A DNA stretch of 35,151 nucleotides, from assembly GCA_043786935.1 (NCBI GenBank), contig JAYVVP010000121.1:1-35151 (forward strand), written 5' to 3'. Shown in pieces: positions 185 to 32,315 of the stretch. The translations under genes and the position numbers were made by a program. Below the pieces are notes generated by a model. The model was not told the DNA's origin. It did not search any database and saw nothing but the letters and a program-made list of their open reading frames with translations. Each line of letters opens with the position of its first letter. Position 1 is the stretch's first letter. This stretch comes from Pseudanabaena sp. (lineage in GTDB: Bacteria; Cyanobacteriota; Cyanobacteriia; Pseudanabaenales; Pseudanabaenaceae).

Positions 185-1402
185 ATGCTAAAAGAAGAAC
201 CAAAGAAACAAATCGCCAATCGCTCTCTGATTGCAAATATATTGATTGTTGTTTTCAGTATTGGGTTAATTACGTGGGCAATTCGTTTGGTTCAATCTAA
301 ATACACATCTGTTGCCAGCTTAGATGCAGTCGTGAACGGGGTTGTCATTGATATTAAGACACCGCAAGAAGGAATTATTAAATCCTTGAAGGCAGATACA
401 GGAAGTATCATCAAGAAAGACGTTATTTTATTGTCTGTTGAGAATGATCAAGTAAGTGATCTACAGGCAAAGCAAATTAGTAGTCGCCTTAGTAGCCAAC
501 AATCCCAGCTTGTTAGTGCTGAAGGACAGCTTGATCAGTTGCTGAGTTTGACTGATTTGCTACAGTCAGACAACCAAAATCAGAAACGTCTTGAAGTTAG
601 CGATTATAGCGATCGCAACGAACAATTTGAGTCAGACCTTAGAGGTGCGATCGCTCGCGCTAAGCTTGCTGGACTTAACTACGATCGCGCTGTTTTTCTC
701 CAAAAAGAAGGAGCATATTCTCAATCTGTTCTTGATTTAGCAAAAGTAGAATTTCAGGCTCGACAATCTGAAGTCGAAAGTCTTGAAGCTCGCCGACAAA
801 GCATACTTACTAATCGCGAAGCTGCTTCTATAGGTCTAACCCTTGAGCGTACCCGCAGTAACTCTGATCCTCGTATTCGATTAGAAGAAGTTCAGTTGCA
901 AATCTCTAATCAACAACGCACGATTATAGCTCTGCGTCAAAGTATTGACGATGCTAAAAGTGAACTTATTGAAGCTAATGCCGATGTTAATCGTCGCCGC
1001 AATGCGATCGTGAAATCGCCTGTATCTGGAGTGATTTGGAAGCTTGGTGCTCGTGAAGGACAACTTGTCCGTCAAGAGCAATCTATTGGACAGATGATTG
1101 ATTGTTCTAAACGTTGGGTAGATGTATATGTCGAAGAACAGTCAGTTGAAGCTATTCAAATTGGGATGCCTGCAAAGATAGAATTATATGCTGCTAGTAC
1201 GCTAGTTTTAAATGGCAAAGTTAGCCTAATTCGTTCAGGCTTAGGACGTTTTAATGCTGGAGAAGATGTTGCAATTACGATCCCGCAAAATTTACCGCGC
1301 ACCGCTCAAGTAAGAGTTGATCTTGATAAAAATTCTGATTTAGGGGCTCCTAATGTCTTTTGTTATATTGGTTATACGGGCAAAGTTACGCTTAATAAGT
1401 AA
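185..1402 (+). CDS. HlyD-family periplasmic adaptor (membrane fusion protein), XcsB-like
   Basis: One N-terminal TM helix. Lipoyl half-motifs (IKTPQEGII, VKSPVSGVIWKLGAREGQLV) flank a long coiled coil, followed by a beta-barrel region (WVDVYVEE...GMPAKIEL...GKVSLI). Lies upstream of the GT2 synthase. Confidence 0.88.
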   Translation: MLKEEPKKQIANRSLIANILIVVFSIGLITWAIRLVQSKYTSVASLDAVVNGVVIDIKTPQEGIIKSLKADTGSIIKKDVILLSVENDQVSDLQAKQISSRLSSQQSQLVSAEGQLDQLLSLTDLLQSDNQNQKRLEVSDYSDRNEQFESDLRGAIARAKLAGLNYDRAVFLQKEGAYSQSVLDLAKVEFQARQSEVESLEARRQSILTNREAASIGLTLERTRSNSDPRIRLEEVQLQISNQQRTIIALRQSIDDAKSELIEANADVNRRRNAIVKSPVSGVIWKLGAREGQLVRQEQSIGQMIDCSKRWVDVYVEEQSVEAIQIGMPAKIELYAASTLVLNGKVSLIRSGLGRFNAGEDVAITIPQNLPRTAQVRVDLDKNSDLGAPNVFCYIGYTGKVTLNK

Positions 1403-1481
1403 TTAGTATTTATATAGTTACAAGTAAAGGTCTTAAGACAATTGTTGTGATAAGCAAATCATAGGTTTAACTTATTAACTG

Positions 1482-1532
1482 AAAGATTAAAGGAAAAGGA
1501 GATGCAAAGCATCTTCTTTTCCTTTAATCTTT
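1482..1532. terminator. 24-bp stem hairpin with AAA loop; likely terminator or REP-like palindrome after the HlyD gene
   Basis: AAAGATTAAAGGAAAAGGAGATGC-AAA-GCATCTTCTTTTCCTTTAATCTTT, with one G:U pair and followed by T residues. Confidence 0.7.
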
Positions 1533-1549
1533 TTGAAATTATAGCGATT

Positions 1550-1614
1550 TTTATATAACTTTTAAATAACTTTATTAATATTTTATAAAATTTATATAAC
1601 TTTTAAATAACTTT
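1550..1614. repeat. Exact 24-bp direct repeat, 2 copies
   Basis: TTTATATAACTTTTAAATAACTTT at 1550-1573 and 1591-1614. Confidence 0.8.
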
Positions 1615-1941
1615 TAGTGGTTGCCAAGCAAATTAATATCAAAGATAATACGAAAAATTAATAAAGAATATAAATTTTATAAATCATTATTTCTTTCATT
1701 AAACTTCAATATTAAGCAGTTGATATTTTGTAAGAGGTAAATCTTATGAATGTGCCTTTAGCAATTTTCAATAAGTTATAAATAAATCCTGATTAATAAG
1801 ATTACAAGTTCCAATCTTAATCAATTGATATTTTTAAAAATTTCTAATTCAAATTAAATAAGTTTATATAGCATTTGTTAATAGGGTATTTAATGCCTTA
1901 CAGTTTTTGTTTTGACCAAACCAAGAGATCATTCTAAAACT

Positions 1942-4209
1942 ATGAAAATTACAGTGCAACCACCTAGATCTAAAGCGAAAAAAACTGGGTTTCCTCTGCC
2001 AATATTGCAGTTAGTCCTAAATCCCAAATCACTTACTCAGCAACATATTTCTCCTTGGGTTTGGGGCTTTTTTATCATTAGTCTTATAGTTTGTATGGCT
2101 TGTATATTTGTGACGCTTAATCGTCCGACCTTACTGCCTTTTCAAAATGTTAATCCTCTAGAATTGCGTGTTTTACCTAGTTTTTTAAGTTTACCAACTA
2201 ATTTAGATGACATATTTATACCTGCGTCAGCGATCACAGCTTTCTGCATTACATTAATATTTCTGCCCGCAAATAATTTTACTCGTCTAATTGTTCACAC
2301 AGTTATTAGTATCTTGGCAGTTCGATATTTAGTATGGCGAACTACAGCCACTCTGAATACATCGCATTGGTTGAGCCTAATCGTCAGCATCGCTTTGCTA
2401 GTTAATGAGTTGGTATGGATTAGTACATATTTGCTATATCTTTTTCAGACAACTTGGACAACCGAAACTAAACGCAAAAAAGAGGCTGATTACTATGAAC
2501 AATCAGTAATAGCAGGTGAATACTTGCCTTCAGTAGATGTGTTCATCCCTACATACAAAGAGCCAGATTTTATTGTTCGTCGCACTGCTATTGGCTGTCA
2601 AGCAATGGATTATCCTAATAAGACTGTCTATATTCTTGATGATACTCGCCGTCCACATATTCAACAAATGGCTGAGGAACTGGGTTGCAAATATATTACT
2701 CGTCCTGATAATAACCATGCTAAGGCAGGCAACCTAAACAACGCATTGCCGCAAACTGATGGCGAACTGATTACAATAATGGACGCTGATTTTGTACCAT
2801 TTACTAAATTTTTGATGCGAACGGTTGGCTTTTTTCAGAATCCTAAATACGATCTGGTTCAGACTCCTCAATTTTTCTATAATCCCGATTATCATGCTCG
2901 TAATTTGGGGTTATCAAACAAGATGCCTAATGATATGGAGCATTTTTTTGGACATGTTCAGCCTAGCCGAGATAATGGTAATTGTGTGATCTGTTGCGGT
3001 ACATCTTATGTAGTTCGTCGCAGCAGTCTGGAAGCGATCGGTGGTTATTACACTGGTTGTTGTGTTGAGGACTATCAAACTTCGATCAAGCTCCTTACTA
3101 ATGGTGGCTGTATTGCTTATGTAAACGAACTCTTAAGCATGGGCGAATCAACACGTATGTTTGCTGATTTTCTTGACCAACGATTGCGTTGGTTGCAGGG
3201 GAACATGCAGGTTTATTATCGTAAGGATTTGCATATATGGACAAAGTTAAACTGGATCCAAAAGAGCTTTCATATTTCGCTGATTTTCTTTTGCTTTAAT
3301 CCTGTTGTTAGAGCTATATCTTTAGTAATGCCTTTATTAAGTATGTTTTTTGGAACGGCTCCTTTGATTACATCTGTTCCTGAATATCTTTTTTATGCAG
3401 CGCCATTTGCGATCGCCTTTACGTTTGTATTTGGCTGGTCTACAGGTGATCGTTTGTCAGCCGTGTGGAATGAAGTCTATGAGACAGCCTTCTGCTTCCC
3501 TGCACTCAATCGTTTATCTTTAGTTTTACGTAATCCATTTGCCAAAGCTTCGACTGCCACCCGTAAGGGAGTTAAAGCTGATCGCAAAAATTACAATTTC
3601 AATCAAACATATCCTTTACTGATCATTATGTCTCTCACAGTGATTGGCATAGTATTTCATTATGGGGGATATATGCTTGGTTTTTGGGCGATAAATCAGC
3701 ATGAGTATGCAGGCAAAGAAATACTTATGGTTTGGTTGATTTACAACTTTATTGTTATGGCGGTGGCAGTACTTTCATCAATTGATCAGCCTGTACGTCG
3801 CGATGTTGATCGATTTCCATTGTGTACATTTTGTAAGCTGACAATTGATGATCGGGTTTACTGGGGTTATACCAACGATTTATCAGAAGGAGGTACAAGT
3901 CTGACTCTAAATAAAAACAATGAGCTTTCAAACTTAAAACATGATCAGGAAGGCTTGCTAGAGTTTGTGGAGCAGGGACTTGCCATTAAATGTACTGTGT
4001 TGCGAGCTGCTAGTAGCGATAGATTTGGTAATGCCTCCATAAAGTTTCGCGATGTTACTCTTGAACAGAATCGCAAATTAATCGTTTTATTATATTGCTC
4101 ATTAGAATGGTGGAAAGAGCGGAAGAAGCCTAATGGTTTAGATTCATTTTTGGAAATTGTTGCGGCAATTTTTAAGTGCAAGCCGCTATTGAATGTTCAT
4201 AAAAATTAA
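1942..4209 (+). CDS. Processive GT2 polysaccharide synthase (cellulose synthase BcsA/XcsA-like) with C-terminal PilZ domain
   Basis: Motifs ILDD, HAKAGNLN, MDADF, QTPQ, VED and QRLRW, plus several TM helices. PilZ motifs RRDVDR (RxxxR) and DLSEGG (DxSxxG). ATG at 1942 preferred over TTG at 1912. Confidence 0.9.
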   Translation: MKITVQPPRSKAKKTGFPLPILQLVLNPKSLTQQHISPWVWGFFIISLIVCMACIFVTLNRPTLLPFQNVNPLELRVLPSFLSLPTNLDDIFIPASAITAFCITLIFLPANNFTRLIVHTVISILAVRYLVWRTTATLNTSHWLSLIVSIALLVNELVWISTYLLYLFQTTWTTETKRKKEADYYEQSVIAGEYLPSVDVFIPTYKEPDFIVRRTAIGCQAMDYPNKTVYILDDTRRPHIQQMAEELGCKYITRPDNNHAKAGNLNNALPQTDGELITIMDADFVPFTKFLMRTVGFFQNPKYDLVQTPQFFYNPDYHARNLGLSNKMPNDMEHFFGHVQPSRDNGNCVICCGTSYVVRRSSLEAIGGYYTGCCVEDYQTSIKLLTNGGCIAYVNELLSMGESTRMFADFLDQRLRWLQGNMQVYYRKDLHIWTKLNWIQKSFHISLIFFCFNPVVRAISLVMPLLSMFFGTAPLITSVPEYLFYAAPFAIAFTFVFGWSTGDRLSAVWNEVYETAFCFPALNRLSLVLRNPFAKASTATRKGVKADRKNYNFNQTYPLLIIMSLTVIGIVFHYGGYMLGFWAINQHEYAGKEILMVWLIYNFIVMAVAVLSSIDQPVRRDVDRFPLCTFCKLTIDDRVYWGYTNDLSEGGTSLTLNKNNELSNLKHDQEGLLEFVEQGLAIKCTVLRAASSDRFGNASIKFRDVTLEQNRKLIVLLYCSLEWWKERKKPNGLDSFLEIVAAIFKCKPLLNVHKN

Positions 4210-4224
4210 ACTAACTGCTAGGTC

Positions 4225-5538
4225 ATGGGAATTCTGAATAACACTCGTTTGCTGTTGTGGATATCGGCGATCGCGCTCTTAATTGGATTGTTTCAGCCTC
4301 TTACTTTTTCAATGGTTGCTGACTCTCAAGCTAAGTTGATTGAACCAACAATTAATCAACTTGACGAAAGGATTCGTAAAATTCGCATGGGCGATTTGCA
4401 GATAAAAGTGATTGATGCTAAACGAAGTCCAATCGCTAATGCTGAAGTTACGATCAAGCAAATGTCGAATGCTTTTCAGTTTGGTACATCTTTGCGGACA
4501 GAAATGTTTAGCGACAATGTAGAAAAGTCCGACCAAAAAAAGTATTTAGAAATAGCTAAAGAACTGGCAAATAGCAGTGTTCATGAAGATGCGCTCAAAT
4601 GGTATTCCACAGAGTCAGAGCGTGGACAGATTAATTATGCTGATGCTGATCGTATTCTGGCATGGAGCGATCGCAATTATCCGTTACCGATGCGCGGACA
4701 TAACCTGTTTTGGGAAGTTGAACGTTGGAGTCAAACATGGTTAAAGCAATTAAGTAACGATGATTTGCGCCAAGCAGTCTACAATCGCGCAACTGATATT
4801 TGTACTCGCTATCGAGGACGCATCGTTGAATATGATGTCCTCAATGAAATGTTGCATGGCAATTTTTTTCGCGGTAGATTAGGCGATCGCATCGTTGATG
4901 ATATGTTCGCAAGGTGTGCGAAAGCCGATCCTCAGGCTCGTCTTTACCTTAATGAATATGACATCCTGAACGGCAAACTGGTTGAGGCTTACAGCAAACA
5001 AATTCGGATGCTTTTAGATCGGGGCGTTGCAGTCGGCGGAATCGGCATCCAAGCTCATATTCGCGAAAATATTTCTGTCGGGACAATGCAATCAAGTATT
5101 GATACTTTAGCTAAGTTAGGTTTACCAATCAAAATCACAGAGGTTAGCGTTGTTGCTGATACGGAAGCTCGCCAAGCTCAAGTTCTTACAGATTTATATC
5201 GTGTTGCTTTTGCACACCCTGCTGTCAAAGGAATTACTCTCTGGGGATTTTGGGAAGGTGCTGCATGGGAGCCGAAAACTGCTCTCTATGATCGCCAGTT
5301 TAAACCTCTGCCTGCGGCAATTGCCTATCGCAAGCTTGTGCTAGAGCAGTGGCGAACTAATACGACAGGTAAAACGGGTAATGTAGGCGATCATCGCACT
5401 GGTCTATATTCAACACGCGCTTTCTTTGGCACTTATCAAGTAACTGTAAAGAAGGGCGATCGTAGCACTCAGAAAATGATTATTTTTAATGATCAAAATA
5501 GTAATCAAAAATTACCCTATACAATTCAGATTTCATAA
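4225..5538 (+). CDS. Exported glycoside hydrolase family 10 (endo-1,4-beta-xylanase-like)
   Basis: Signal or TM N-terminus. GH10 motifs LKW, RGHNLFW, YDVLNE (acid/base), LYLNEY, GIGIQAH, IKITE (nucleophile) and GITLWGF. Starts 15 bp after the synthase stop. Confidence 0.88.
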   Translation: MGILNNTRLLLWISAIALLIGLFQPLTFSMVADSQAKLIEPTINQLDERIRKIRMGDLQIKVIDAKRSPIANAEVTIKQMSNAFQFGTSLRTEMFSDNVEKSDQKKYLEIAKELANSSVHEDALKWYSTESERGQINYADADRILAWSDRNYPLPMRGHNLFWEVERWSQTWLKQLSNDDLRQAVYNRATDICTRYRGRIVEYDVLNEMLHGNFFRGRLGDRIVDDMFARCAKADPQARLYLNEYDILNGKLVEAYSKQIRMLLDRGVAVGGIGIQAHIRENISVGTMQSSIDTLAKLGLPIKITEVSVVADTEARQAQVLTDLYRVAFAHPAVKGITLWGFWEGAAWEPKTALYDRQFKPLPAAIAYRKLVLEQWRTNTTGKTGNVGDHRTGLYSTRAFFGTYQVTVKKGDRSTQKMIIFNDQNSNQKLPYTIQIS

Positions 5539-5736: not shown

Positions 5737-7146
5737 GTGAAAAAAGGAATAAAAAAAGGATTTGTTAACTTTATTGCCTCTAGCCTTGTATTTTGCGGTG
5801 GTGTAAGCGCGATCGCAACTATTCCTTTGATATCGGCTGATCCTGTCCAAGCTCAGTCCAATGAAGCTACAAATATTCGTGTTTACAAATTAGCTAGTCC
5901 TGCTGTTGTATCGATCCAATCCCAGCGCGGTAGTGGCAGTGGTTCGATCATTGATGCAAAGGGATTGATTTTGACTAATGCCCATGTTGTTCGCGGTGAA
6001 ACAACAGTAAATGTAATCCTTAGTGACAAGCGCCAATTTCGCGGTGTAGTAATCGCTAGTACTCGCAATCCTGATTTGGCGGTAATTAAATTAGAAGGCG
6101 TAACTGAAAGTCTGCCGACAATTCAGATTGCAAGTTCGAGCGATATTCAAGTAGGGCAAAGAGCTTTTGCGATCGGCAATCCGTTTGGACGCTTTGCGGG
6201 GACGCTTACCACAGGGATCATCAGTCGGATCGATCTTGAACGCAAGTTATTACAAACTGATGCAGCGCTTAATCCTGGAAATTCAGGGGGACCTTTGCTC
6301 AATGGTCGCGGTGAATTAGTGGGTGTAAATACAGCAATTTTTACAACAAACTCCGTCAATAGCGGCATCGGTTTAGCGATCGAGGCAGATACAGTTAAGA
6401 AATTTATTGCTGCCGTAAGACAAGGAACGATCACTACTAATCCTACGCCTCTAGTTAGTCCCAGCCTTCTTACTCTTGATGGCAATGCGATCGCAGCCTC
6501 ACTTACGGCTTCTGACAATACATTACCCGACGGTAGTTACTACAAAGCTTATCAATTTCAGGGTCAAGCAGGTCAGTCTGTGGTGATTGAGATGCGCGGT
6601 AATAACATTGATCCCTATTTGGTGCTATTTGACGCGAGTGGACGTAAAGTTGCGGAAGATGATGATGGGGCTGGCGGCAAAAATGCGCGCCTTAAGGTCA
6701 CTTTACCGAGTACAGGTAAATATACGCTCTATGCTAATTCTTACGAAATTGGCAAAACTGGTTCATTTACGATCGCAGGAAGTCTGAGCAATAACTTTAC
6801 TGCCGAATCAACAGGCGATCGCAGAATCCTTTTACAGAAGAATGGAGTTTTAGGAACCCAAAGTCGAGTCTTGGCGAGAGATGGCAGCTTTTTTGATGCC
6901 TTTAGTTTTAATGGACAAGCAGGACAAGTGGTGCAGATTGAACTTATAAGTTCTGATTTTCATCCCTATTTAGTGTTGTTCTCTCCAAATAGCAGGGTAT
7001 TGCAAGAAAATAATGGCTTACCTAGTCGTAAACAAGCGACGATGACACTTGAACTACCTTTTACGGGAACCTATCGAACTATCGTGAATGCTTTTGATCG
7101 CACAGGAAAAGGATCGTATAAACTCACTGTCCAAAGAGTGAAATAA
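5737..7146 (+). CDS. Secreted trypsin-like (S1C, HtrA-related) serine protease with two C-terminal PPC domains and no PDZ
   Basis: Signal peptide. Catalytic triad in TNAHVV, DLAVIK and GNSGGPL. Two repeats of F.GQAGQ.V.IE....PYLVLF......LP.TG.Y, typical of the PPC domain. GTG start. Confidence 0.88.
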   Translation: MKKGIKKGFVNFIASSLVFCGGVSAIATIPLISADPVQAQSNEATNIRVYKLASPAVVSIQSQRGSGSGSIIDAKGLILTNAHVVRGETTVNVILSDKRQFRGVVIASTRNPDLAVIKLEGVTESLPTIQIASSSDIQVGQRAFAIGNPFGRFAGTLTTGIISRIDLERKLLQTDAALNPGNSGGPLLNGRGELVGVNTAIFTTNSVNSGIGLAIEADTVKKFIAAVRQGTITTNPTPLVSPSLLTLDGNAIAASLTASDNTLPDGSYYKAYQFQGQAGQSVVIEMRGNNIDPYLVLFDASGRKVAEDDDGAGGKNARLKVTLPSTGKYTLYANSYEIGKTGSFTIAGSLSNNFTAESTGDRRILLQKNGVLGTQSRVLARDGSFFDAFSFNGQAGQVVQIELISSDFHPYLVLFSPNSRVLQENNGLPSRKQATMTLELPFTGTYRTIVNAFDRTGKGSYKLTVQRVK

Positions 7147-14171: not shown

Positions 14172-16106
14172 ATGACACAAGGCATGGCACTTTTTACACT
14201 GCGATCGCTCAAAAAAGATTTTGGCATTAAAGAAATCCTCAAAGATGCGAGTTTTAGCCTTGATGAAGGCGATAAAGTTGGACTTATTGGCACAAATGGT
14301 TCAGGCAAATCTACATTACTGAAAATGATTGCCAAACTAGAGACATTTGATAGTGGCGACTTATGGATAAACTCTAGTGCCAAAATTATCTATTTGCCTC
14401 AGCAGCCTGACCTGAATGAAGAACTTACAGTTTTGGAGCAAGTGTTTGCTGACAGTGGCGAACAAATGTCGCTGGTCAAGGAATATGAAGAAATATCTGA
14501 TCAGTTATCGCATGGACATGGTGATCAAGATCGTCTATTAGCAAGGCTATCGAGCGTATCTGAGCGCATGGATGTGATGGGCGCTTGGGATTTGGAAACT
14601 GATGCCAAAATCATCTTGACGAAATTAGGCGTTGATGATTTGGAAGCGAAAATTGGCAGCTTATCAGGTGGATATCGTAAACGGATTGCGATCGCCTCCG
14701 CATTACTTTCCTCGCCCGATGTTTTGCTGATGGATGAGCCGACTAACCACCTTGATGCGCTCTCAGTGGAATGGCTCCAGAGCTACCTCAACCGCTATCG
14801 TGGTGCATTGCTATTAATTACTCACGATCGCTACTTTCTTGATAAGGTCACTAATCGAATTATCGAAATCGATCGCGGCGATTTATTTAACTATTCGGGA
14901 AATTATTCTTATTATTTAGAGAAAAAAGCCGAAGCTGAAGACTCCGCCGCCAGTACTCAACGCAAACATTCAGGACTATTACGCCGCGAATTAGAATGGC
15001 TGAAAAAAGGTCCTAAAGCTCGAAGTACTAAGCAAAAAGCCAGAATTGACCGCGCCCACGCTTTGCAAGCAACCGAATTTAAGCAAGCCAATGCCAAAGT
15101 CGATATCACCACATCAGGACGGCGCATCGGCAAAAAAGTTGTAGAACTTGATCGCATCGGTAAATCATATGGCGATCGCACTCTGATTAAAGACTTCTCA
15201 TACAACTTTACGCCCGAAGATCGTATCGGCATCATTGGTGCTAATGGCGCAGGTAAATCTACGCTGATGAACATGATCCTCGGCAATTTGCAGCCTGACG
15301 AAGGCACTGTAGAAATCGGAACAACTATCCATTTTGGTTATTTCGATCAACATTCTGACGACCTTGCCGAAAATGGCAATCTGCGTGTAATTGACTATCT
15401 CAAGAATGTTTCGGAACTCGTCAAAACCTCTGATGGCAGCGTAATCACCGCGTCGCAAATGCTAGAGCGATTTCTCTTCCCTGGCAATCAACAGTATGCA
15501 CCGATCAACAAACTTTCTGGTGGTGAGAAACGGCGCTTATTCCTTTTAAAAGTATTGATGGCGGCTCCAAATGTCTTGATCTTAGATGAACCGACTAACG
15601 ATCTTGATGTGCAAACTCTAGCAGTTTTAGAAGAATATCTTGAAGACTTTAATGGCTGTGTAATTGTAGTTTCTCACGATCGCTACTTCCTTGATCGGAC
15701 TGTGGATATGGTGTTCTCATTCGAGGCAGAAGGTGAGGTGCGTTTATATCCTGGTAATTATTCGATTTATTTGGAACATAAAAAAGACGAAGAAGAACAA
15801 GAAGGCAGTAAAACTAAAGAACAGAAAGTTAGTAATTCACAACCATTTGTTCCCGAAATCAAAAAGCCTAAAACCGAGAGTAAAAAGCCGTCTAAAGCTT
15901 CCTTTAAAGAGAAGCGCGAATACGAAGATCTTGAGCTAAAAATCCCTCAATTAGAAGCAGAGAAAATCCAAGTCGAGAAACAGCTTTATCATAATCCACC
16001 CACTGGTCATACAGAGGTTAAAAAATTAAGCGATCGCTTGGCTGAACTAACTAAATTAATCGAAAAATCAACCGAGCGTTGGCTAAACCTATCCGAACGG
16101 ATTTAA
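14172..16106 (+). CDS. ABC-F family ATP-binding protein (Uup-like)
   Basis: Two ABC domains (GTNGSGKS/LSGG/DEPTNHLD and GANGAGKS/LSGGEKRR/DEPTNDLD), linker GPKARSTKQKARI, C-terminal coiled coil, no TM. Confidence 0.93.
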   Translation: MTQGMALFTLRSLKKDFGIKEILKDASFSLDEGDKVGLIGTNGSGKSTLLKMIAKLETFDSGDLWINSSAKIIYLPQQPDLNEELTVLEQVFADSGEQMSLVKEYEEISDQLSHGHGDQDRLLARLSSVSERMDVMGAWDLETDAKIILTKLGVDDLEAKIGSLSGGYRKRIAIASALLSSPDVLLMDEPTNHLDALSVEWLQSYLNRYRGALLLITHDRYFLDKVTNRIIEIDRGDLFNYSGNYSYYLEKKAEAEDSAASTQRKHSGLLRRELEWLKKGPKARSTKQKARIDRAHALQATEFKQANAKVDITTSGRRIGKKVVELDRIGKSYGDRTLIKDFSYNFTPEDRIGIIGANGAGKSTLMNMILGNLQPDEGTVEIGTTIHFGYFDQHSDDLAENGNLRVIDYLKNVSELVKTSDGSVITASQMLERFLFPGNQQYAPINKLSGGEKRRLFLLKVLMAAPNVLILDEPTNDLDVQTLAVLEEYLEDFNGCVIVVSHDRYFLDRTVDMVFSFEAEGEVRLYPGNYSIYLEHKKDEEEQEGSKTKEQKVSNSQPFVPEIKKPKTESKKPSKASFKEKREYEDLELKIPQLEAEKIQVEKQLYHNPPTGHTEVKKLSDRLAELTKLIEKSTERWLNLSERI

Positions 16107-16120
16107 CATTAATTAAAATG

Positions 16121-16169
16121 AATATTGCGGTTTTCAAGTTATCGTAAATAAATTGTGAACCGCAATATT
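16121..16169. repeat. 12-bp perfect inverted repeat with 25-nt spacer
   Basis: AATATTGCGGTT at 16121-16132 and AACCGCAATATT at 16158-16169. Confidence 0.65.
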
Positions 16170-16209
16170 TTGGTATTTGTATTAGCTTGCAGGTTGGGGA
16201 AAAGCTTCA

Positions 16210-18657
16210 ATGACTAATCAAGCCTTAAACTGGAATCTAGCTCGTTTTGGGATAGAGCTTAAAAATCCTCGTTGGTGGATTGAAATTATTGTCATAGCTG
16301 CTGCCTATACGTCAGTCTCTTTGATAATAGTGAATACTCTACCTAAAAATCCTAATATCCCTTCGCCCATCTGGCCAGGTGCAGGGGTTGTGGTGGGATT
16401 ACTATTAAGTTGGGGGCGATCGCGATGGTTTGGAGTTTTTTTAGGAACACTTTGTTTTAATTATCATAAGAGAGGCTTAGCAGTCATATTCCCTCCTATA
16501 GGCGCAAGTATTGGTTCGACCCTCGGAGCCATGATCACAGTCTCACTAATTTTACATTTTACGCGCACTAGCTATCCCTTACGCCATGTTCGCCATGTAG
16601 TAATTCTTTCACTGTGTTCGATGTTTACGGGAACTATAGTTCAGCCAATTATTGGCATCCTTTCCTATAGTTCGTTTATGGCTAAGCTCTGGACTGACTT
16701 TCCAAAAGTCTTTTTTCATTGGTGGATTGGTGATTCAATTAGTGTTTTGCTTTTTGCGCCTCTCATTTTTGTGTGGTTGCGATCACTAAGAGATTCTAAG
16801 ATCAAATCTTGGCTAAATTGGGAAGTGATCGCAGTCCTGTCTAGTTTAACTATCATTTCCTATTTCTCGTTTTACAAGAGTGAACCGCTCGAATACCTAC
16901 TTTTGCCACCATTACTATGGTCAGCCTTTCGCTTGGGAGCTAAGTTTACTACCCTAATTGTAGTAATTGTCTCCCTGACCGCTACATATGCTACAGCTAG
17001 TAAGTTTGGGATTTTTTATAAGCCCGAAGTTGATGGTAATTCAGTTTTATTTCTGCAATTATTTATGGGTGTGATTGCAATCACCACATTGTCTGTCCTT
17101 GCGATCGTTTCTGAAAACGATCAAGCCAATCTGCGCTTAAAAAGAGCCAATATTGATTTAGAACAGAGAGTTATTGAACGTACTCACGAACTTCAAAAAA
17201 GTGAAGCTAATGCAAGAGAGCTAGCAACCAAAGCAGAATCCGCTAATCATGCCAAAAGTGCTTTTATTGCAAACATGAGCCACGAACTTCGATCGCCTCT
17301 AAATGCTGTAATTGGATTTTCGCAGTTAATGATGCGAACCCCAAAATTACCCACAGAACAGTATGAAAATGCAAGTATTATTAATCGCAGTGGTGATTAT
17401 TTATTAACACTTATAAACAATATTCTTGATCTATCAAAACTAGAAGCGGGCAAGTCATATCTCAATGTTCACAATTTTGATTTATATCATCTGCTAGACG
17501 ATATAGAAGATATGTTACAGATGCAAGCCACCAATGCGGGAATAAGTTTAAGCTTTGCGCGAGCGCATGATGTACCCCGTTATATTTGTACAGACGAAAC
17601 GAAGCTCCGTCAAGTCTTGATTAATTTGCTTAATAATGCGCTCAAATTTACTGAAGTGGGTACGGTTTTTTTGAGCCTAACAAATAGCAGTACAGATGTA
17701 AGTAGAGCCGACAATAACTGTATTTTGCATTTCAGTGTTCGAGATACGGGCGTAGGCATTGCCCCTGAAGAAATACCTAATTTATTTGTTTCTTTTTCTC
17801 AGGCTCAGGCTGGGAGAGAGAAGCAAGAAGGGACAGGTTTAGGTTTAGCGATTAGCCTCAAGTTTGTGCATTTAATGGGGGGAAATATAAGTGTCACTAG
17901 CGAATCTGGTAAAGGTACAACTTTCCAAGTTCAGATTCAAGCCCAACTAGGAAAAGAATTAATAGATGAGCGAACAGAACAAAGACGAACCCTAGCAATA
18001 GCTGCCGATCAGCCCATTTACAAAATTTTAGTTGTTGATGACAATCCCGACAATCGCCAATTATTGATCAAGATTCTGCGTCCTATGGGTTTTGAAGTTA
18101 AAGAAGCCAGTAATGGAAAAGAGGCGATCGCTATTTGGGATCGATGGGAACCACACTTAATTTGGATGGATATGCGAATGCCTGTAATGGATGGCTATGA
18201 AGCAACTCGTTATATTAAATCCACTACCAAAGGCAATGCAACCGCAGTGATTGCTTTAACAGCCAGTTCTATAGAAGAAGAAAGAACAATAGTGCTTTCG
18301 ACAGGATGTGATGACTTTCTACGCAAACCATTTAAAGAACAAGTTATTTTTGACACACTTGCCAAGCATCTTGGCGTTAAGTATATATACGAGCAAATTC
18401 CTGCTCATGAACATGAACTTGACATTTTTCAAGAAACAGCAATTTCATCAGAAAATTTAAAAATTATGTCAGACCAATGGATTATACGATTATATAAATC
18501 GGCTCTCGAAGCTGATAAAAGTCTCGTTATGCAAGTAATTGAAGAAATTCCTGACCAACAAACTTTTTTAGTGCGATCGCTAACCAGACTTGCACGTAAT
18601 TTCCAATTTGAAAAATTAATCGACTTAGCCGAACCTTTATTACCGAAAACTTATTAA
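16210..18657 (+). CDS. MASE1-domain hybrid sensor histidine kinase (MASE1-HisKA-HATPase-REC)
   Basis: MASE1 motifs PIWPGAG, WWIGD and PLLWSAFR. H-box MSHELRSPL, N-box NLLNNALKFT, G boxes DTGVG and GTGLGL. Receiver VVDD...WMDMRMP...KPF. Confidence 0.93.
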   Translation: MTNQALNWNLARFGIELKNPRWWIEIIVIAAAYTSVSLIIVNTLPKNPNIPSPIWPGAGVVVGLLLSWGRSRWFGVFLGTLCFNYHKRGLAVIFPPIGASIGSTLGAMITVSLILHFTRTSYPLRHVRHVVILSLCSMFTGTIVQPIIGILSYSSFMAKLWTDFPKVFFHWWIGDSISVLLFAPLIFVWLRSLRDSKIKSWLNWEVIAVLSSLTIISYFSFYKSEPLEYLLLPPLLWSAFRLGAKFTTLIVVIVSLTATYATASKFGIFYKPEVDGNSVLFLQLFMGVIAITTLSVLAIVSENDQANLRLKRANIDLEQRVIERTHELQKSEANARELATKAESANHAKSAFIANMSHELRSPLNAVIGFSQLMMRTPKLPTEQYENASIINRSGDYLLTLINNILDLSKLEAGKSYLNVHNFDLYHLLDDIEDMLQMQATNAGISLSFARAHDVPRYICTDETKLRQVLINLLNNALKFTEVGTVFLSLTNSSTDVSRADNNCILHFSVRDTGVGIAPEEIPNLFVSFSQAQAGREKQEGTGLGLAISLKFVHLMGGNISVTSESGKGTTFQVQIQAQLGKELIDERTEQRRTLAIAADQPIYKILVVDDNPDNRQLLIKILRPMGFEVKEASNGKEAIAIWDRWEPHLIWMDMRMPVMDGYEATRYIKSTTKGNATAVIALTASSIEEERTIVLSTGCDDFLRKPFKEQVIFDTLAKHLGVKYIYEQIPAHEHELDIFQETAISSENLKIMSDQWIIRLYKSALEADKSLVMQVIEEIPDQQTFLVRSLTRLARNFQFEKLIDLAEPLLPKTY

Positions 18658-18660
18658 TCT

Positions 18661-19494
18661 ATGAGTTACGATCCTTTGCTCGAACTAACAGGTAATATTC
18701 TTTTGGTAGATGATCTACCAGAAAACTTACAACTTCTTAGCGAGTTAGTACTTAAACTTGGCTACACCGTTCGCAGCGTTACGAGTGGACGGATGGCGAT
18801 TAAAACAGCAAAGGTGAAACGACCAGATCTTATTCTCTTAGATATTAAGATGCCAGACATGGATGGCTATCAGGTTTGTCAGGCTTTTAAAGCTGATCAA
18901 GATTTGAAAGATATACCTGTGATTTTTATCAGCGCCTTAGATGATGTTTTGGACAAAGTAAAGGCTTTTTGGGCGGGTGGAGTCGATTATATTGTGAAAC
19001 CTTTCCAACGCGAAGAGGTTGCAGTGCGAATAGAAAACCAACTAACTATTCAACGACAGAAACGCTGTTTACAAGATGAGATTTCTAGACGTAAAGAAAC
19101 TGAAGAAATGTTATATCAGTCTAGAGCTTTAGTTACTAGTGTTTTAAATAGTGTCCAAGATGGAATTGCTGCTGTGCAAGCAGTACGCGATCCAACAACA
19201 GGCGAGATTATAGATTTTCGTTGCCTTGTGCTGAATCCTATTGTCTCCAAAATCTTTGATCGCGGTCGTGAGGATTTAATTGGCAAATTAGTGCTAAGAA
19301 GATTTCTGGAGAAATTTAACCCAATACTGCTTAAGCAATTAATTAATGTAGTTGAAACAGGGATTCCGCTAGATCAAGAAGTATATTATCCGTCAGAACC
19401 TATTGGCTGGTATCAAGTGATTGCAGTCAAGTTAGGAGATGGTTTTACAGTGACCATACGCTACATTAAAATCAAAAAACAAGTCGATTCCTGA
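18661..19494 (+). CDS. Response regulator, REC plus PAS-like domain, no output domain
   Basis: LVDD, LLDIKMP and KPF receiver motifs, then a coiled linker and a PAS-like region ending KLGDGFTVTIR. Starts 3 bp after the kinase stop. Confidence 0.88.
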   Translation: MSYDPLLELTGNILLVDDLPENLQLLSELVLKLGYTVRSVTSGRMAIKTAKVKRPDLILLDIKMPDMDGYQVCQAFKADQDLKDIPVIFISALDDVLDKVKAFWAGGVDYIVKPFQREEVAVRIENQLTIQRQKRCLQDEISRRKETEEMLYQSRALVTSVLNSVQDGIAAVQAVRDPTTGEIIDFRCLVLNPIVSKIFDRGREDLIGKLVLRRFLEKFNPILLKQLINVVETGIPLDQEVYYPSEPIGWYQVIAVKLGDGFTVTIRYIKIKKQVDS

Positions 19495-22888: not shown

Positions 22889-23557
22889 TCAGATTCGCAA
22901 GTTTTCTAACTGCGTAATCCACTGATTAAAATGCGGACATTTTTCTCTAATACTTGCCAAACCAATTTTCTGTACTATCAAAGACCCAGCAGATACTTTT
23001 TCGTAAGTAGGAACAAATTGAAAAATTCTTTTAGAAGGAGCGGTATTTGCACCTTGGTTAATTAGTTCAGGAGAAGAAAAACTATGACAAACATTTGATA
23101 ATTCTTGAATTTCTTGCTCATACTCAGGAAATCTTTCTGATAATTTTTCTGGTTGGACAAGAATTAAGGTTTCAAATTCATGCAATTGAATATAGGGTAT
23201 AAACCTTCGATCATCAATATCGTCGAAAAAAGCCTTTTCAAGGCATTCAATTTTTTGATAATACTCTAATTTCTTAGCTTCATCAAATTTTGGAAAATCA
23301 TTCGGTAATGCGTATAAATCTAACATGGTTGTAAATCTTGCATCCTCAGATTTATCTTGCTTTAACCAGAGAATGATATCCCTTTTTACTTTTTCATAAC
23401 TAGTTAATCCTCCTCGATACACTTTGTTTTTAGTACGTTTAGTTGTAATGCTATGTACAGATATAGAAATATTAAAATATCCTAAGTGTTCAGCTAAAGT
23501 TGTATTTACAAATTCTTCTTCTGTCTGACCTTCTGCAATAACATGTAAACGAATCAT
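22889..23557 (-). CDS. DUF4276-type protein with TOPRIM-like fold (putative nuclease)
   Basis: N-terminal VIAEGQTEEEF, TTMLDLYALP, YIQLHEFE, PELIN..APSKRI and CPHFNQW. The ATG overlaps the TGA of the upstream ATPase. Confidence 0.8.
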   Translation of the reverse strand: MIRLHVIAEGQTEEEFVNTTLAEHLGYFNISISVHSITTKRTKNKVYRGGLTSYEKVKRDIILWLKQDKSEDARFTTMLDLYALPNDFPKFDEAKKLEYYQKIECLEKAFFDDIDDRRFIPYIQLHEFETLILVQPEKLSERFPEYEQEIQELSNVCHSFSSPELINQGANTAPSKRIFQFVPTYEKVSAGSLIVQKIGLASIREKCPHFNQWITQLENLRI

Positions 23558-24654
23558 CAGCTAGGTCTCCCACCGATAACATTTTTATTCCATAGTTCAG
23601 ATAATGAGTATTCTTCTAGCCAATCTTCCAGATCTGCCTCAACTAATCTGTTAAAAGAAGATTCTCGGTCATTTCTTTCAACAACAATAATATCTTCTGG
23701 CTCAAAACAATCCACTAATAACGGTGATTGAGTCGCTAAAACTACTTGGCAACGATTAGAAACACTATTAATTAAGCTACCAATAATATTAATCGCATAG
23801 GGATGTAATCCTAGTTCTGGCTCATCTAAAATCAAAACATCAGGCAGACTATCAGGAGGTTGGAGCAAAAGAGTTACTAAAGCCATTACTCTTAATGTCC
23901 CATCTGATGCTTGGTCAGGGCTAAAAAGTAACCCACTACCTTTTTCTGCCCATTGTAGAAGCAAGGGACTATCTCCACCTGAAAATAAGAAATCTCCGAA
24001 AAATGGAGCAATTTGTCTAATTGTTTCTACAATTCTTTGATAATAACGAGGCTCTTTTTCTCTAATTCTTAGAAGAAAAGGTGCTAAGTTCCCAGCATCT
24101 TCTTTAAGATAGTAATTGTCATTGATACTTGATCTGTTTTTGATACTTGCAGTTTCTGTTGTATCGTGAAATTGATACACATTAAGAGATTGCATCAGAC
24201 TATAGATATCTTTAGCCTCTTGATTATATAGTTTGATATCAAGTAGTTTTGATTCTTTATGTCCTGCATCTAGAGAATTCCAATCTACCCAACGCTTGAC
24301 TGTGTTCTGAGAAAAGCGGTATTTCTCTTCAGCAAATATAAATGTGTCTGACGCTGCATGAAAAAGCCTAAGAGAATAATCGTTTTTGCCAGAGTTAGAC
24401 TCAAAGTTAAGTTCGGCTTCAATTTGTGGAGTAACTGCGGCTCCATCAAACAAGAAAGAGTCTGCTCCACCTGATCTAGCTACAAAAAATTGTAATTGCC
24501 CCGAGGGTTTCATCATCCAATTTAGCAACTTAAAAAAAGAAATAAAATTAGATTTACCTGAACCATTCGCGCCAATTAGAACGTTGATGGGAGATAAATC
24601 TAAATCTAATTCTTTAATTGATTTATAGCCTTTAATGCTGATATGTTTAAGCAT
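23557..24654 (-). CDS. AAA_21/ABC-type ATPase (soluble, SMC/OLD-like)
   Basis: IKGYKSI, Walker A GANGSGKSN, signature SDGTLR, Walker B LILDEPELGLHP, and ATQSP. Confidence 0.9.
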   Translation of the reverse strand: MLKHISIKGYKSIKELDLDLSPINVLIGANGSGKSNFISFFKLLNWMMKPSGQLQFFVARSGGADSFLFDGAAVTPQIEAELNFESNSGKNDYSLRLFHAASDTFIFAEEKYRFSQNTVKRWVDWNSLDAGHKESKLLDIKLYNQEAKDIYSLMQSLNVYQFHDTTETASIKNRSSINDNYYLKEDAGNLAPFLLRIREKEPRYYQRIVETIRQIAPFFGDFLFSGGDSPLLLQWAEKGSGLLFSPDQASDGTLRVMALVTLLLQPPDSLPDVLILDEPELGLHPYAINIIGSLINSVSNRCQVVLATQSPLLVDCFEPEDIIVVERNDRESSFNRLVEADLEDWLEEYSLSELWNKNVIGGRPS

Positions 24655-28480: not shown

Positions 28481-28690
28481 GGCAGATAACTTCTCAGTAA
28501 GAGGGGTTGCTAACCATAGCACAAAAAGGCAAAGTGAAAGAATTGCACTCTACATTTTGCGAACCAACTTGTGAACTAAATCAAGCAGATTAAGCACTTT
28601 GCCGAAAGCGTATGGGATCGCGATCGCTACAGGCTAAAGCAAATATTTTTTTTGTGTTATTCTCAAGAAGCTATCGTTATTGATAATGCT

Positions 28691-29152
28691 ATGACTTCTG
28701 CGGAGACCACCTATTCACCTGAATCACTCAAGGCTGAACTCAACTTAAAAGGTTGTCGCATGACGCCGCAGCGCGAGGTGATTTTAAATACGTTTCAAAC
28801 ATTGCCTGAAGGCGAGCATCTTAGTGCCGAAGATTTATACGAACGTCTGAAAGCCCAAGGTGGAAATATTAGCCTTTCGACAATTTATCGTACCGTCAAG
28901 ATGATGGCCCGAATGGGGATTTTACGAGAATTAGAACTTACAGAAGATCATAAACATTATGAAATCAATCAGCCAAAACCTCATCACCACCATCATCTAG
29001 TCTGCGTCAAAACGAATCGTGTCATTGAGTTTAAAAATGACCAAATTCTGACTATTAGCAAAAAAGTTGCCGACAAATTTGGTTTCTCAGTTCTCGACTG
29101 TCAACTCACAATTATTGGCGTTAGCCCCGAAGGACAGCGCTCAATTTTTTAA
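28691..29152 (+). CDS. fur: Ferric uptake regulator, FurA-like
   Basis: RMTPQREVIL, HLSAEDLY, SLSTIYRT, ILRELEL, HYE and HHHHHLVC. ATG at 28691 preferred over TTG at 28652. Confidence 0.92.
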   Translation: MTSAETTYSPESLKAELNLKGCRMTPQREVILNTFQTLPEGEHLSAEDLYERLKAQGGNISLSTIYRTVKMMARMGILRELELTEDHKHYEINQPKPHHHHHLVCVKTNRVIEFKNDQILTISKKVADKFGFSVLDCQLTIIGVSPEGQRSIF

Positions 29153-29904: not shown

Positions 29905-30930
29905 GTGGGTCTATTACGCCATTTTACAAAAGACATCGGTATTGACTTAGGTACTGCCAACACACTCATATATGTGTCTGGCGAAGGTATTGTTCTGCAA
30001 GAACCATCAGTTGTTGCGATCGATCAACGCGATAAGACTGCATACGCGGTCGGTGATGAAGCAAATAAAATGATCGGGCGCACCCCTGGCGATATCATTG
30101 CCGTTCGTCCGCTTAAAGATGGAGTGATTGCTGACTTTGACTCGGCTGAGTTGATGCTGCGCTGCTTTATTAACAAAGTCAAAAAAGGTGTTTTTAATCC
30201 TCGCATCGCGATCGGTATTCCTAGTGGGGTAACAGGCGTGGAATGGCGAGCCGTAATGGATGCTGCTCGTCGGGCTGGGGCTAGCGAAGTCTACCCAATT
30301 GATGAACCAATCGCCGCTGCGATCGGTGCTGGGTTGCCCGTCACTGAAGCAACTGGCAACATGATCATTGACATTGGCGGGGGAACAACCGAAGTCGCAG
30401 TCATGAGTTTGCAAGGGATTGTATTAAGTGAGTCGGTCAGAGTTGCAGGCGATGAACTCACCGAAGCAATCATGAAATACATGAAAACTGTGCATAATCT
30501 TGTGGTTGGTGAGCGTACTTCTGAAGAGATCAAAATTAAAATTGGATCTGCTTATCCGATCAAAGAAGAAACTTCGATGGAGGTGAGAGGCTTGCATTTA
30601 TTGTCAGGCTTGCCGCGTACCGTCACTGTCAAGTCTTCAGAAATTCGTGAAAGTATGAGTGAACCACTTTCAGTAATTATTGAGGCGGTAAAGCGGACTC
30701 TAGAGCGCACTCCGCCTGAGCTTGCGGCTGATATTATTGATCGCGGCATCATGTTGGCTGGTGGTGGGGCATTGCTCAATGGCATTGACACTTTAATTAG
30801 TCACGAAACAGGGATTATTACTCATATTGCTCCTGCTCCACTTAATTGTGTAGTCATTGGTGCGGGTCGCGTTTTAGAAGATTATAAAAATCTTGGGCGT
30901 GTCCTCACTAGTCGCATGAAAAATTTATAG
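29905..30930 (+). CDS. mreB: Rod shape-determining actin homologue MreB
   Basis: IGIDLGTANT, EPSVVA, DIGGGTTEVAV and LAGGGALL. GTG start. Confidence 0.98.
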   Translation: MGLLRHFTKDIGIDLGTANTLIYVSGEGIVLQEPSVVAIDQRDKTAYAVGDEANKMIGRTPGDIIAVRPLKDGVIADFDSAELMLRCFINKVKKGVFNPRIAIGIPSGVTGVEWRAVMDAARRAGASEVYPIDEPIAAAIGAGLPVTEATGNMIIDIGGGTTEVAVMSLQGIVLSESVRVAGDELTEAIMKYMKTVHNLVVGERTSEEIKIKIGSAYPIKEETSMEVRGLHLLSGLPRTVTVKSSEIRESMSEPLSVIIEAVKRTLERTPPELAADIIDRGIMLAGGGALLNGIDTLISHETGIITHIAPAPLNCVVIGAGRVLEDYKNLGRVLTSRMKNL

Positions 30931-30949
30931 GCTTACAGGTAGATTTTTC

Positions 30950-31696
30950 ATGGATTCTATTCGTAGTTGGTGGGAGCGCTACAGCTTTCAAACCTCTGTG
31001 GTTGCCGTTGGAATTGGGTTAGCTTGGGTAATACGTCAAACACAAGGCGTAGCGATTATGGAAACCTATCAGTTTCTAAGTCGTCCTTTCCAATCGGGTG
31101 TAACTAAGCAAGAGTTATTGCAAGATGCTCAAGTGCGAGAATTGCGCTATCGCTTAACTGAACTAGAATCTCAGAACCAGCGGATGAAAGAACTTTTAAA
31201 GATAAAAGTTAATCCCATAAAAAATGAGGTTTGGACTACGGTGATTGGTCGTGGTGCTGACTCTTGGTGGAATCAGATCCTAATTGGCAAAGGTAGCAAT
31301 GATGGGATCAAGGCAGGGGCTGTCGTTGTTGCTCCAGGTGGTTTGGTTGGTCGAGTTACCAATGTCTCGCCTAACAGTAGTCAAGTTTTACTGATTAGTG
31401 ATCCTAATAGTCAAGTTGGAGTTGTAGTTAGCCGCAGTCGTTTTAGCGGGATGCTCAAAGGACAAAGCCAAAACACAGCTGTATTGGAATTTTTCGAGCG
31501 CGATCCCGATGCTAAGGTAGGTGATATTGTCCACACTTCACAATTTAGTACACTATTTCCTGAAAATGTTCCTGTAGGTCGTATTAAGTCAATCAATCTC
31601 GATAAGCAACCATCTCCTGAAGCAATTATTGAATTTTCAACTCCACTTGGTTTACTAGAATATGTGGAAGTATATCCGTTCCAAAAAAAGCTGTAA
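30950..31696 (+). CDS. mreC: Rod shape-determining protein MreC
   Basis: TM helix plus coiled coil, GLVGRV, VLLISD and FPENVPVG. Follows mreB. Confidence 0.95.
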   Translation: MDSIRSWWERYSFQTSVVAVGIGLAWVIRQTQGVAIMETYQFLSRPFQSGVTKQELLQDAQVRELRYRLTELESQNQRMKELLKIKVNPIKNEVWTTVIGRGADSWWNQILIGKGSNDGIKAGAVVVAPGGLVGRVTNVSPNSSQVLLISDPNSQVGVVVSRSRFSGMLKGQSQNTAVLEFFERDPDAKVGDIVHTSQFSTLFPENVPVGRIKSINLDKQPSPEAIIEFSTPLGLLEYVEVYPFQKKL

Positions 31697-31763
31697 AAGC
31701 GATATTGAGGTTTTACATTAACCTATCTTCAAGCTTTAAAATCAATTAACTAAGTCTCCGTAA

Positions 31764-32315
31764 ATGATTGAGCGCAAAGTTTCTTTATCAAAAAAGCTTT
31801 TAAATTGGACAGTAACTATTGGCTCTGTACTAATATGCATTTTGGCAATGTATACCAGATTGCCAGGGATGACGTTAATGGGGATAGCGCCCAATTGGTT
31901 GCTGATTTGGCTAGTGGCGTGGAGCGTCAATCGTCCAGTATTTTTGTCAGTGATGGCGGGTATTGCTTTAGGTATGTTGCAAGACAGTATGACATTTGCT
32001 GATGTGAGAGCGGCTCCAACTCATGCGTTAGGATTAGCGATCGCGGGTGGAATTACATCGCTTTTACAAAAGCAGCGCTATATGCAAGAAGATTTTGTGT
32101 CGATCGCTTTAATTGTGTTTGGCATGGCAGTGATTGTCGAAACAATGCACGCAGTCCAGCTAACTTTTATGGGCGCAGGTATGGACAATGTATGGACTTT
32201 ACAACAACGAATTGCTCTGAGTTCAGCAATTGTCAGTAGTTTATGGTCACCTGTGATTTATTTTCCGCTCAGTCGTTGGTGGCGATCGCTAGAAAGAAAA
32301 GACGATCAACTTTAA
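31764..32315 (+). CDS. mreD: Rod shape-determining protein MreD
   Basis: Hydrophobic protein with PNWLLIW and GMLQDS. Follows mreC. Confidence 0.92.
   Translation: MIERKVSLSKKLLNWTVTIGSVLICILAMYTRLPGMTLMGIAPNWLLIWLVAWSVNRPVFLSVMAGIALGMLQDSMTFADVRAAPTHALGLAIAGGITSLLQKQRYMQEDFVSIALIVFGMAVIVETMHAVQLTFMGAGMDNVWTLQQRIALSSAIVSSLWSPVIYFPLSRWWRSLERKDDQL

Follow-up and report, generated by a model that had tools for sequence, protein, structure and literature searches.

A clustered copy of the cyanobacterial xcs genes in Pseudanabaena and the probable nature of its exported polymer

What polymer is exported by a cyanobacterial gene cluster in which a HlyD-like adaptor, a processive family 2 glycosyltransferase (GT2) with a PilZ domain, and a family 10 glycoside hydrolase (GH10) are encoded side by side? 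The question is raised by a 35,151-nucleotide stretch of Pseudanabaena sp. DNA (assembly GCA_043786935.1, contig JAYVVP010000121.1, forward strand; hereafter, the window), which carries one such cluster close to its first nucleotide. A first-pass annotation of this sequence proposed a cyclic di-GMP (c-di-GMP)-gated export system, possibly for a xylan-type product, on the grounds that linked hydrolases usually match the polymer and that GH10 enzymes mostly cut beta-1,4-xylan. The open reading frames (ORFs), domains, and catalytic and PilZ motifs it described were all recovered. Comparative evidence, however, assigns these genes to the xcsB-xcsA-xcsC cluster already published for cyanobacteria, of which they are a further copy; the cluster probably encodes a c-di-GMP-gated, TolC-dependent exporter of a cellulase-sensitive, glucose-only beta-1,4-glucan, rather than of a xylan.

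The synthase shares 47% identity over 725 aa with the Thermosynechococcus vestitus protein labeled "cellulose synthase XcsA" (P0255) and 53% with a Nostoc punctiforme GT2 (P0288), as compared with 29–33% for BcsA, BgsA, and CrdS-type references. Both cyanobacterial proteins find xcsA as their best match in the window genome (G000 in our labels; completeness 98.9%), making the relationship one of reciprocal best hits. The phylogenetic comparison with BcsA, XcsA, CrdS, and BgsA that the annotation had proposed groups the window synthase with XcsA and P0288 in a clade of 14 rows (SH-like approximate likelihood ratio test, SH-aLRT, 100; quick IQ-TREE tree of 37 proteins), separate from other cyanobacterial GT2s, from BgsA/CrdS types, and from BcsA. 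It also carries the XcsA residue at 24 of 32 specificity-linked positions. By these comparisons the window synthase is orthologous to XcsA, and the Xcs precedent cited in the first-pass annotation is well founded.

XcsA retains the expected GT2 motifs (D243-D244, D291-x-D293, E386-D387, and Q423-R-L-R-W427) and a PilZ domain at residues 629–727 (Pfam E 1.5e-8) with both diagnostic elements intact, R630-xxx-R634 and D656-x-S-xx-G661; the two arginines of RxxxR are invariant in 74/74 aligned homologues. This is the sole PilZ match in the window genome, and 14 GGDEF matches occur there; a PilZ gate, as the annotation proposed, is the likely arrangement. The AlphaFold model (predicted local distance difference test, pLDDT, 90.2) adopts a BcsA-like fold with a PilZ barrel, and in Foldseek it comes closest to BcsA of E. 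coli and of R. sphaeroides (template modeling score, TM, ~0.76); the profile score against CelA, 419 bits, falls below the cut-off of 699. XcsA is 765 aa when counted from a TTG codon; ATG 1942 is the likelier start, because close homologues are 755 aa long.

The remaining components fit the same system. The xcsB, xcsA, and xcsC genes are co-oriented, have intact frames, and are each single-copy in the window genome. XcsB has one N-terminal transmembrane segment by hydropathy (residues 15–33) and is 39% identical to Thermosynechococcus HlyD proteins (P0376/P0377, which do not carry the Tlr0903 label); the only match of these proteins in the window genome is xcsB. The annotation saw no bcsB, bcsC, or GH8 bcsZ in the window, an absence that now extends to the whole genome: searches for BcsB, the BcsC C-terminal region, and GH8 returned no family match there, with the E. 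coli control positive each time. A single OEP-family (TolC) gene is found on contig C33. The genome thus combines an XcsA orthologue, a HlyD-like adaptor, an XcsC-type glycanase, and a TolC-family gene, without BcsB or BcsC. Complex prediction for XcsA (residues 40–630) with XcsB scored 0.19 against a mark of 0.32, which is evidence neither way.

In Thermosynechococcus vulcanus, the corresponding proteins are XcsA (Tll0007), XcsB (Tlr0903), XcsC (Tlr1902), and TolC (Tlr1605) (PMC12430437, PMC7582838). The Tll0007 PilZ domain is reported to bind c-di-GMP with a Kd of 64 uM and to require R605 of RxxxR (PMC5871770); aggregation mediated by cellulose is reported to require xcsA, xcsB, xcsC, and tolC (PMC7582838), and the aggregates are described as dispersed by cellulase (PMC11434263, PMC10124867). 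According to a 2025 review, homologues of xcsA/B/C include Synpcc7942_1398/1399/1400 and Npun_F6500/F6499/F6501; the same review presents the XcsAB-TolC conduit as a model without experimental validation (PMC12430437). By analogy, c-di-GMP bound to the PilZ domain is predicted to open the window XcsA. XcsA would then polymerize uridine diphosphate (UDP)-glucose and extrude the chain across the inner membrane; XcsB would bridge the periplasm to TolC, replacing BcsB/BcsC; and XcsC would trim or release stalled chains much as BcsZ does, via a side glucanase activity of its GH10 subfamily. The likely role of the cluster is in aggregation or biofilm matrix formation.

The hydrolase, on which the xylan proposal turned, does have the sequence hallmarks of a GH10 xylanase. 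Its catalytic glutamates E208 and E306 correspond in alignment to the positions that carry Ala mutations in PDB 7D89, and both the catalytic pair and the subsite residues of the canonical xylanase set are present (E121, K125, H159, W163, N207, E208, Q276, H278, E306, W340, and W348); the conserved Asn after E121 is Asp (D122) in the window protein and in some orthologues. Export is suggested by a single N-terminal hydrophobic stretch (residues 9–27). However, XcsC, the sole GH10 match in the window genome, is 46% identical to a T. vestitus GH10 (P0092) and 53% to a N. punctiforme GH10 (P0269), and the third gene of one published cluster is itself annotated as a xylanase. Synpcc7942_1400 is annotated as COG3693 beta-1,4-xylanase in a supplement (PMC3025956) where its homologue group contains GI 22299445 of T. 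elongatus and GI 186686511 of N. punctiforme. By accession order GI 186686511 would be Npun_F6501, as it comes after 186686509 (B homologue) and 186686510 (A homologue). The GI offsets are equal (22299445 − 1902 = 22298446 − 903), so that accession order would make GI 22299445 tlr1902 if 22298446 is tlr0903. The N. punctiforme GT2 and GH10 accessions are likewise consecutive (ACC84763/ACC84764). The window GH10 is therefore the normal third gene of an Xcs cluster and not a departure from it, and the contrast implied by the first-pass annotation falls away. The xylan idea thus becomes a claim on the whole known family, and the question of the product concerns the Xcs family at large, not the window locus alone.

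Linkage of the three genes recurs beyond the window. The locus survey comprised the best 80 of 249 confirmed loci from a GH10 scan, a way of finding them that biases counts to linkage. Close matches, all from cyanobacteria or a close relative, make up 24 of the 80; GT2 lies directly upstream of GH10 in 14 of these and the full B-A-C order occurs in nine (two with split hlyD), so the co-occurrence in other genomes on which the annotation had staked its reading is observed. GT2 is not nearby in the other ten (five loci of Thermosynechococcus, three further loci, and two truncated where the contig stops), and the 56 more distant GH10 loci gave no GT2 or HlyD match. Gene order is kept across several cyanobacterial families. 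The closest named homologues of the window cluster are from Pseudanabaena, and the block was found in 5/37 other genomes of the genus. In two genomes, xcsB is seemingly split or frameshifted while xcsA and xcsC are whole (L027, 4765–5630; L048, 4347–5560).

Among 401 genomes sampled evenly across the phylum, with two candidates per genome scored for GT2, 77 gave a GT2 match at E <= 1e-100. The top nine (E <= 1e-166, at least 39% identity) were taken as XcsA-clade genomes, six by tree and three by score. A GH10 family match is present in 8/9 of them versus 34/392 others (kin are not independent), and in 6/9 that match is the sole GH10 of the genome; G342 is the one without a GH10 match, and in G002 no GH10 is adjacent. 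These counts use a family search, as a single-protein search misses the divergent GH10 of G053. The surroundings of 13 other cyanobacterial GT2 genes, spread over 12 loci, contained no GH10. ORF clustering of 31 loci, together with a Pfam scan of 21 selected neighbor proteins, found no conserved fourth gene (sugar-nucleotide enzyme, acetylase, TolC, or cyclase) beside the cluster.

Several observations weigh against a plain cellulose product. The XcsA clade falls outside both proven cellulose-synthase clades in a quick tree, and Oehme et al. placed cyanobacterial sequences in a clade of "unknown function" (PMC6821405). We scored 32 of the 33 sub-family positions of that study, leaving out position 395; at these, the window XcsA agrees with cellulose synthases alone at 6, with CrdS/BgsA alone at 10, with both groups at 7, and with neither group at 9 (Thermosynechococcus XcsA: 5, 11, 7, and 9). 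The TED motif, the E371-R580 latch, and FxVTxK are described as conserved in BcsA (PMC8892547). Among the XcsA homologues, the TED threonine is V, A, or S in 74/74 (VED in the window), E371 is replaced by R in 73/74, and F503 of FxVTxK is S in 61/74 and F in 9; additionally, M387 is N in 74/74. In the window XcsA the E371 position lies within residues 411–415, where an invariant Glu precedes the Arg by three residues; the gating loop, at residues 541–553, in most homologues does not carry the FxVTxK phenylalanine. The c-di-GMP latch of this clade may work differently from that of BcsA. The review table lists no cellulose type for T. vulcanus (PMC12430437). The closest solved GH10 to XcsC is PDB 7D88 (E 1e-73; next distinct protein, 3e-31), apparently Bacillus KW1 XynA, to judge from its length and catalytic numbering (E182 plus a 20-residue tag). 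XynA is reported also to cleave carboxymethylcellulose (CMC), Avicel, and cello-oligosaccharides, but to be mainly a xylanase by 10–100x (50–551 U/mg on xylans vs 5 U/mg on CMC); a relative sharing 88% identity with it is described as being without CMC activity (PMC6408826). Because XynA cuts glucans as well as xylans, and so near a relative is without CMC activity, the hydrolase family cannot fix the identity of the polymer; the 2025 review, for its part, calls XcsC an endoglucanase (PMC12430437).

These departures could mean that xylose enters the polymer. The XcsA clade, the window enzyme included, might be a glucoxylan synthase that builds a xylose-containing beta-1,4 polymer from UDP-glucose and UDP-xylose, cellulase-sensitive enough to have been called cellulose, with GH10 kept for cutting at xylosyl residues. 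We consider this unlikely, though not negligible. It would explain both the altered acceptor site and gating loop and the recruitment of two GH10 lineages into xcs operons: an XynA-like lineage (window, P0092, and P0269) and, at L166 and L167, where the order is C-B-A, a canonical WHxQLP type. The GH10s of these two loci are 24–30% identical to the window XcsC and set apart from the XynA-like lineage by a branch of support 100. An approximately unbiased (AU) test rejects a single clade for 11 Xcs-type GH10s (p 1.9e-13; quick tree without a mixture model, with the group defined after the tree was viewed). This double recruitment suggests that GH10 specificity matters, which fits xylose in the polymer, as does the enrichment of GH10 in XcsA-clade genomes and its absence near the 13 other GT2 genes. 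The acceptor-site changes T341V, H276Q, Y302F, F317C, and M387N point the same way, but H276Q, Y302F, and F317C also occur in BgsA and CrdS, which make pure glucans. The window genome encodes a UDP-xylose synthase homologue (E 3e-123 to human UXS1), as do 5/5 XcsA-clade genomes tested; only xcsA-bearing genomes were counted, however, so its presence does not discriminate. Against a glucoxylan also stand the report of the orthologue's product as cellulose (PMC7582838, PMC5871770, PMC10124867), the existence of GH10s with cellulase activity (PMC6408826), the two genomes lacking a GH10 or an adjacent one, and the finding that, in the loci examined, neither a xylose-pathway gene nor any other fourth gene keeps a place next to the cluster. 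A pure beta-1,4-xylan with UDP-xylose as the only donor is very unlikely. XcsC keeps the canonical xylanase residues and its nearest characterized relative is mainly a xylanase (PMC6408826), but aggregates attributed to an XcsA orthologue are described as cellulose and as dispersed by cellulase (PMC7582838, PMC11434263), and the window synthase, with its 24/32 XcsA residues and the same odd motifs, bears no mark of a switched enzyme. Of the products first proposed, then, xylan itself loses ground, and the xylose-containing glucan gains some indirect support.

Cellulases also cut mixed-linkage (1,3;1,4)-beta-glucan (MLG), and a product of this kind, as made by rhizobial BgsB-BgsA-TolC, is another reading that we regard as improbable. 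BgsBA-TolC is described as a c-di-GMP-activated tripartite MLG system (PMC13438883, PMC7997180), rhizobial bgsBA shares the HlyD-then-GT2 order, and the window XcsA is closest to BgsA among four reference clades (15/32; the others score 11, 10, and, for CrdS, 8). However, a true BgsA scores 30/32 at these positions, the BgsA IF1 motif DxQR and the V/G pair at 479–480 are absent from the window XcsA, identity to BgsA (31.5%) is about that to BcsA, and the selected neighbors scanned include no lichenase-type protein. Rooting on BcsA makes the cyanobacterial clade the sister group of BgsA/CrdS types, but this relation is root-dependent, as distant GT2 outgroups, on very long branches, root the tree elsewhere. 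The reference synthases come from plasmid records: L094 was taken as BgsA from its pSymB location behind an adaptor gene and its 30/32 signature match, and L095 as CrdS-type by signature alone (31/32), not as a characterized CrdS. It is very unlikely that the three genes work together only in part, with xcsB transcribed apart or the GH10 serving some other end such as scavenging or matrix remodeling, so that linkage would be uninformative about the polymer. A 509-base spacer with a strong hairpin separates xcsB from xcsA, the GH10 is unlinked in several genomes, and the block is patchy within the genus; against this, the three frames are intact, their order is conserved across several cyanobacterial families, and xcsC is reported to be needed in T. 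vulcanus though unlinked there (PMC7582838). On balance, a glucose-only beta-1,4-glucan remains the probable product.

Its compact, operon-type layout makes the cluster a convenient setting in which to test the XcsAB-TolC model. If xylose does enter the polymer, XcsA would be a xylose-polymerizing bacterial GT2 synthase gated by c-di-GMP, which would allow hemicellulose-like polymers to be made by one enzyme and serve as a model of donor choice in cellulose-synthase-like enzymes; a glucoxylan would further require re-identification of the published Thermosynechococcus "cellulose". Searches of Creative Commons literature in PMC and of bioRxiv found no synthase of that description and no stated link of cyanobacterial Xcs to xylan or xylanase. 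A natural comparison for product chemistry is an XcsA sub-branch (L163, 6833–9205; L164, 7026–9353) whose finger helix carries SED and whose gating loop is restored to FAVTPK, and in which the upstream HlyD is kept and an adjacent GH10 is absent.

The three genes may not form one transcript, because the AT-rich spacer between xcsB and xcsA contains a 25-pair hairpin, whereas only 15 bases separate xcsA from xcsC (Table 1). The hairpin folds at −33.8 kcal/mol (z −9.1; 0/200 shuffles equal), and its sequence is not conserved in four aligned relatives. Two TAACTTT-N4-TAACTTT repeats with an 11-base period, kept in 4/4 aligned relatives, represent a possible regulator-binding site; they look similar to boxes of the OmpR family, for example the Pho box of cyanobacteria. 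The pattern has nine matches genome-wide, two of them upstream of xcsA. The promoter-like match directly after the repeats is partly conserved in the four relatives, and the region holds 23 sigma70-like matches in total, which is chance level (shuffles 19.2 +/- 4.3). Given the hairpin after xcsB, the repeats, and the promoter-like match, xcsA-xcsC may have its own regulated promoter.

Table 1. Genes of the cluster and candidate regulatory elements, in window coordinates
Feature	Position	Strand	Description
xcsB	185..1402	+	HlyD-like membrane fusion protein, 405 aa; Pfam HlyD_D23/HlyD_3
Hairpin	1481..1533	+	25 pairs followed by a T run, terminator-like; folding against shuffles and terminator scan
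Direct repeats	1556..1614	+	TAACTTT-N4-TAACTTT, two copies (1556-1573, 1597-1614), upstream of xcsA
Promoter-like match	1621..1649	+	sigma70-like, TTGCCA-17-GATAAT, 10/12 match
xcsA	1912..4209	+	Processive GT2 polysaccharide synthase; C-terminal PilZ at 3796-4095
xcsC	4225..5538	+	GH10 glycanase, 437 aa; Pfam Glyco_hydro_10 E 3.4e-50

Downstream of the cluster, a trypsin-like serine protease (5737–7146), with a signal-like N-terminus and C-terminal PPC rather than PDZ domains, and an unassigned ORF are kept beside it only in the closest relative. Elsewhere, the window encodes a hybrid histidine kinase of the MASE1 type and, after it, a response regulator (16210–19494), fur (28652–29152), and mreBCD (29905–32315). 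On the reverse strand, at 22889–24654, an AAA_21 ATPase (365 aa) is directly followed by a DUF4276 protein (222 aa), presumably an ATPase-plus-partner pair of the kind found in toxin-antitoxin or defense modules. The window genome contains a second processive GT2 of 660 aa on contig C150 (~15005–16864, + strand), recovered as a two-piece match that groups near BcsA; it is possibly a cyanobacterial cellulose synthase of the PilZ-less type with a plant-conserved region (PCR) insert.

Set against known systems, the window synthase resembles that of the canonical BcsA-BcsB-BcsZ-BcsC system in its PilZ-bearing BcsA fold and its D,D,D,QxxRW signature. A canonical bcs operon is rejected: BcsB, BcsC, and GH8 have no match in the genome, the synthase lies outside BcsA clades 1 and 2, and TED, E371, and FxVTxK are altered. 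Protein type I secretion is also rejected, as no ABC exporter lies beside hlyD and the TIGR01843 score is 24 against a cut-off of 209. Rhizobial BgsB-BgsA-TolC is alike in combining a HlyD adaptor, a GT2, and TolC under c-di-GMP activation without BcsB/BcsC; unlike XcsA, BgsA has no PilZ domain and no linked GH10 in the loci examined, and its separate clade and the 15/32 vs 30/32 diagnostic residues exclude membership of the window cluster in that system. A CrdS curdlan synthase is rejected on the same positions (8/32 vs 31/32 in L095, the reference of CrdS type). Further HlyD + GT2 pairs other than BgsA occur on plasmids of Agrobacterium and Bradyrhizobium (L095, 1351–4911; L100, 1622–4932; L103, 1453–4623); the CrdS-type gene of L095 nonetheless lies behind a HlyD gene, and L100 and L103 form a further clade.

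The closest resemblances are to cyanobacterial clusters. Synechococcus elongatus PCC 7942 (Synpcc7942_1400-1399-1398) has the same three gene kinds, the third an endo-1,4-beta-xylanase by annotation, but in the order C-B-A, and the C-B-A loci L166 and L167 carry the other GH10 lineage. Npun_F6499-F6500-F6501 of N. punctiforme shares the B-A-C order, 53% identity for both GT2 and GH10, and the GH10 lineage of the window, with no system-level difference found between the two clusters; the review, in its treatment of N. punctiforme, does not assign the product to an xcs gene (PMC12430437). Relative to Thermosynechococcus, the window differs in that its genes are clustered rather than scattered, in the hairpin and direct repeats between xcsB and xcsA, and in a GH10 without the lipobox-like LVVAC leader seen there. 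In other respects the T. vulcanus system and the window cluster agree: both have the same three components (synthase 47%, GH10 46%, and HlyD 39% identical) with TolC encoded elsewhere in the genome, and their synthases belong to one clade and share the unusual motifs VED, WLQGN, R at 371, and SxxTxK.

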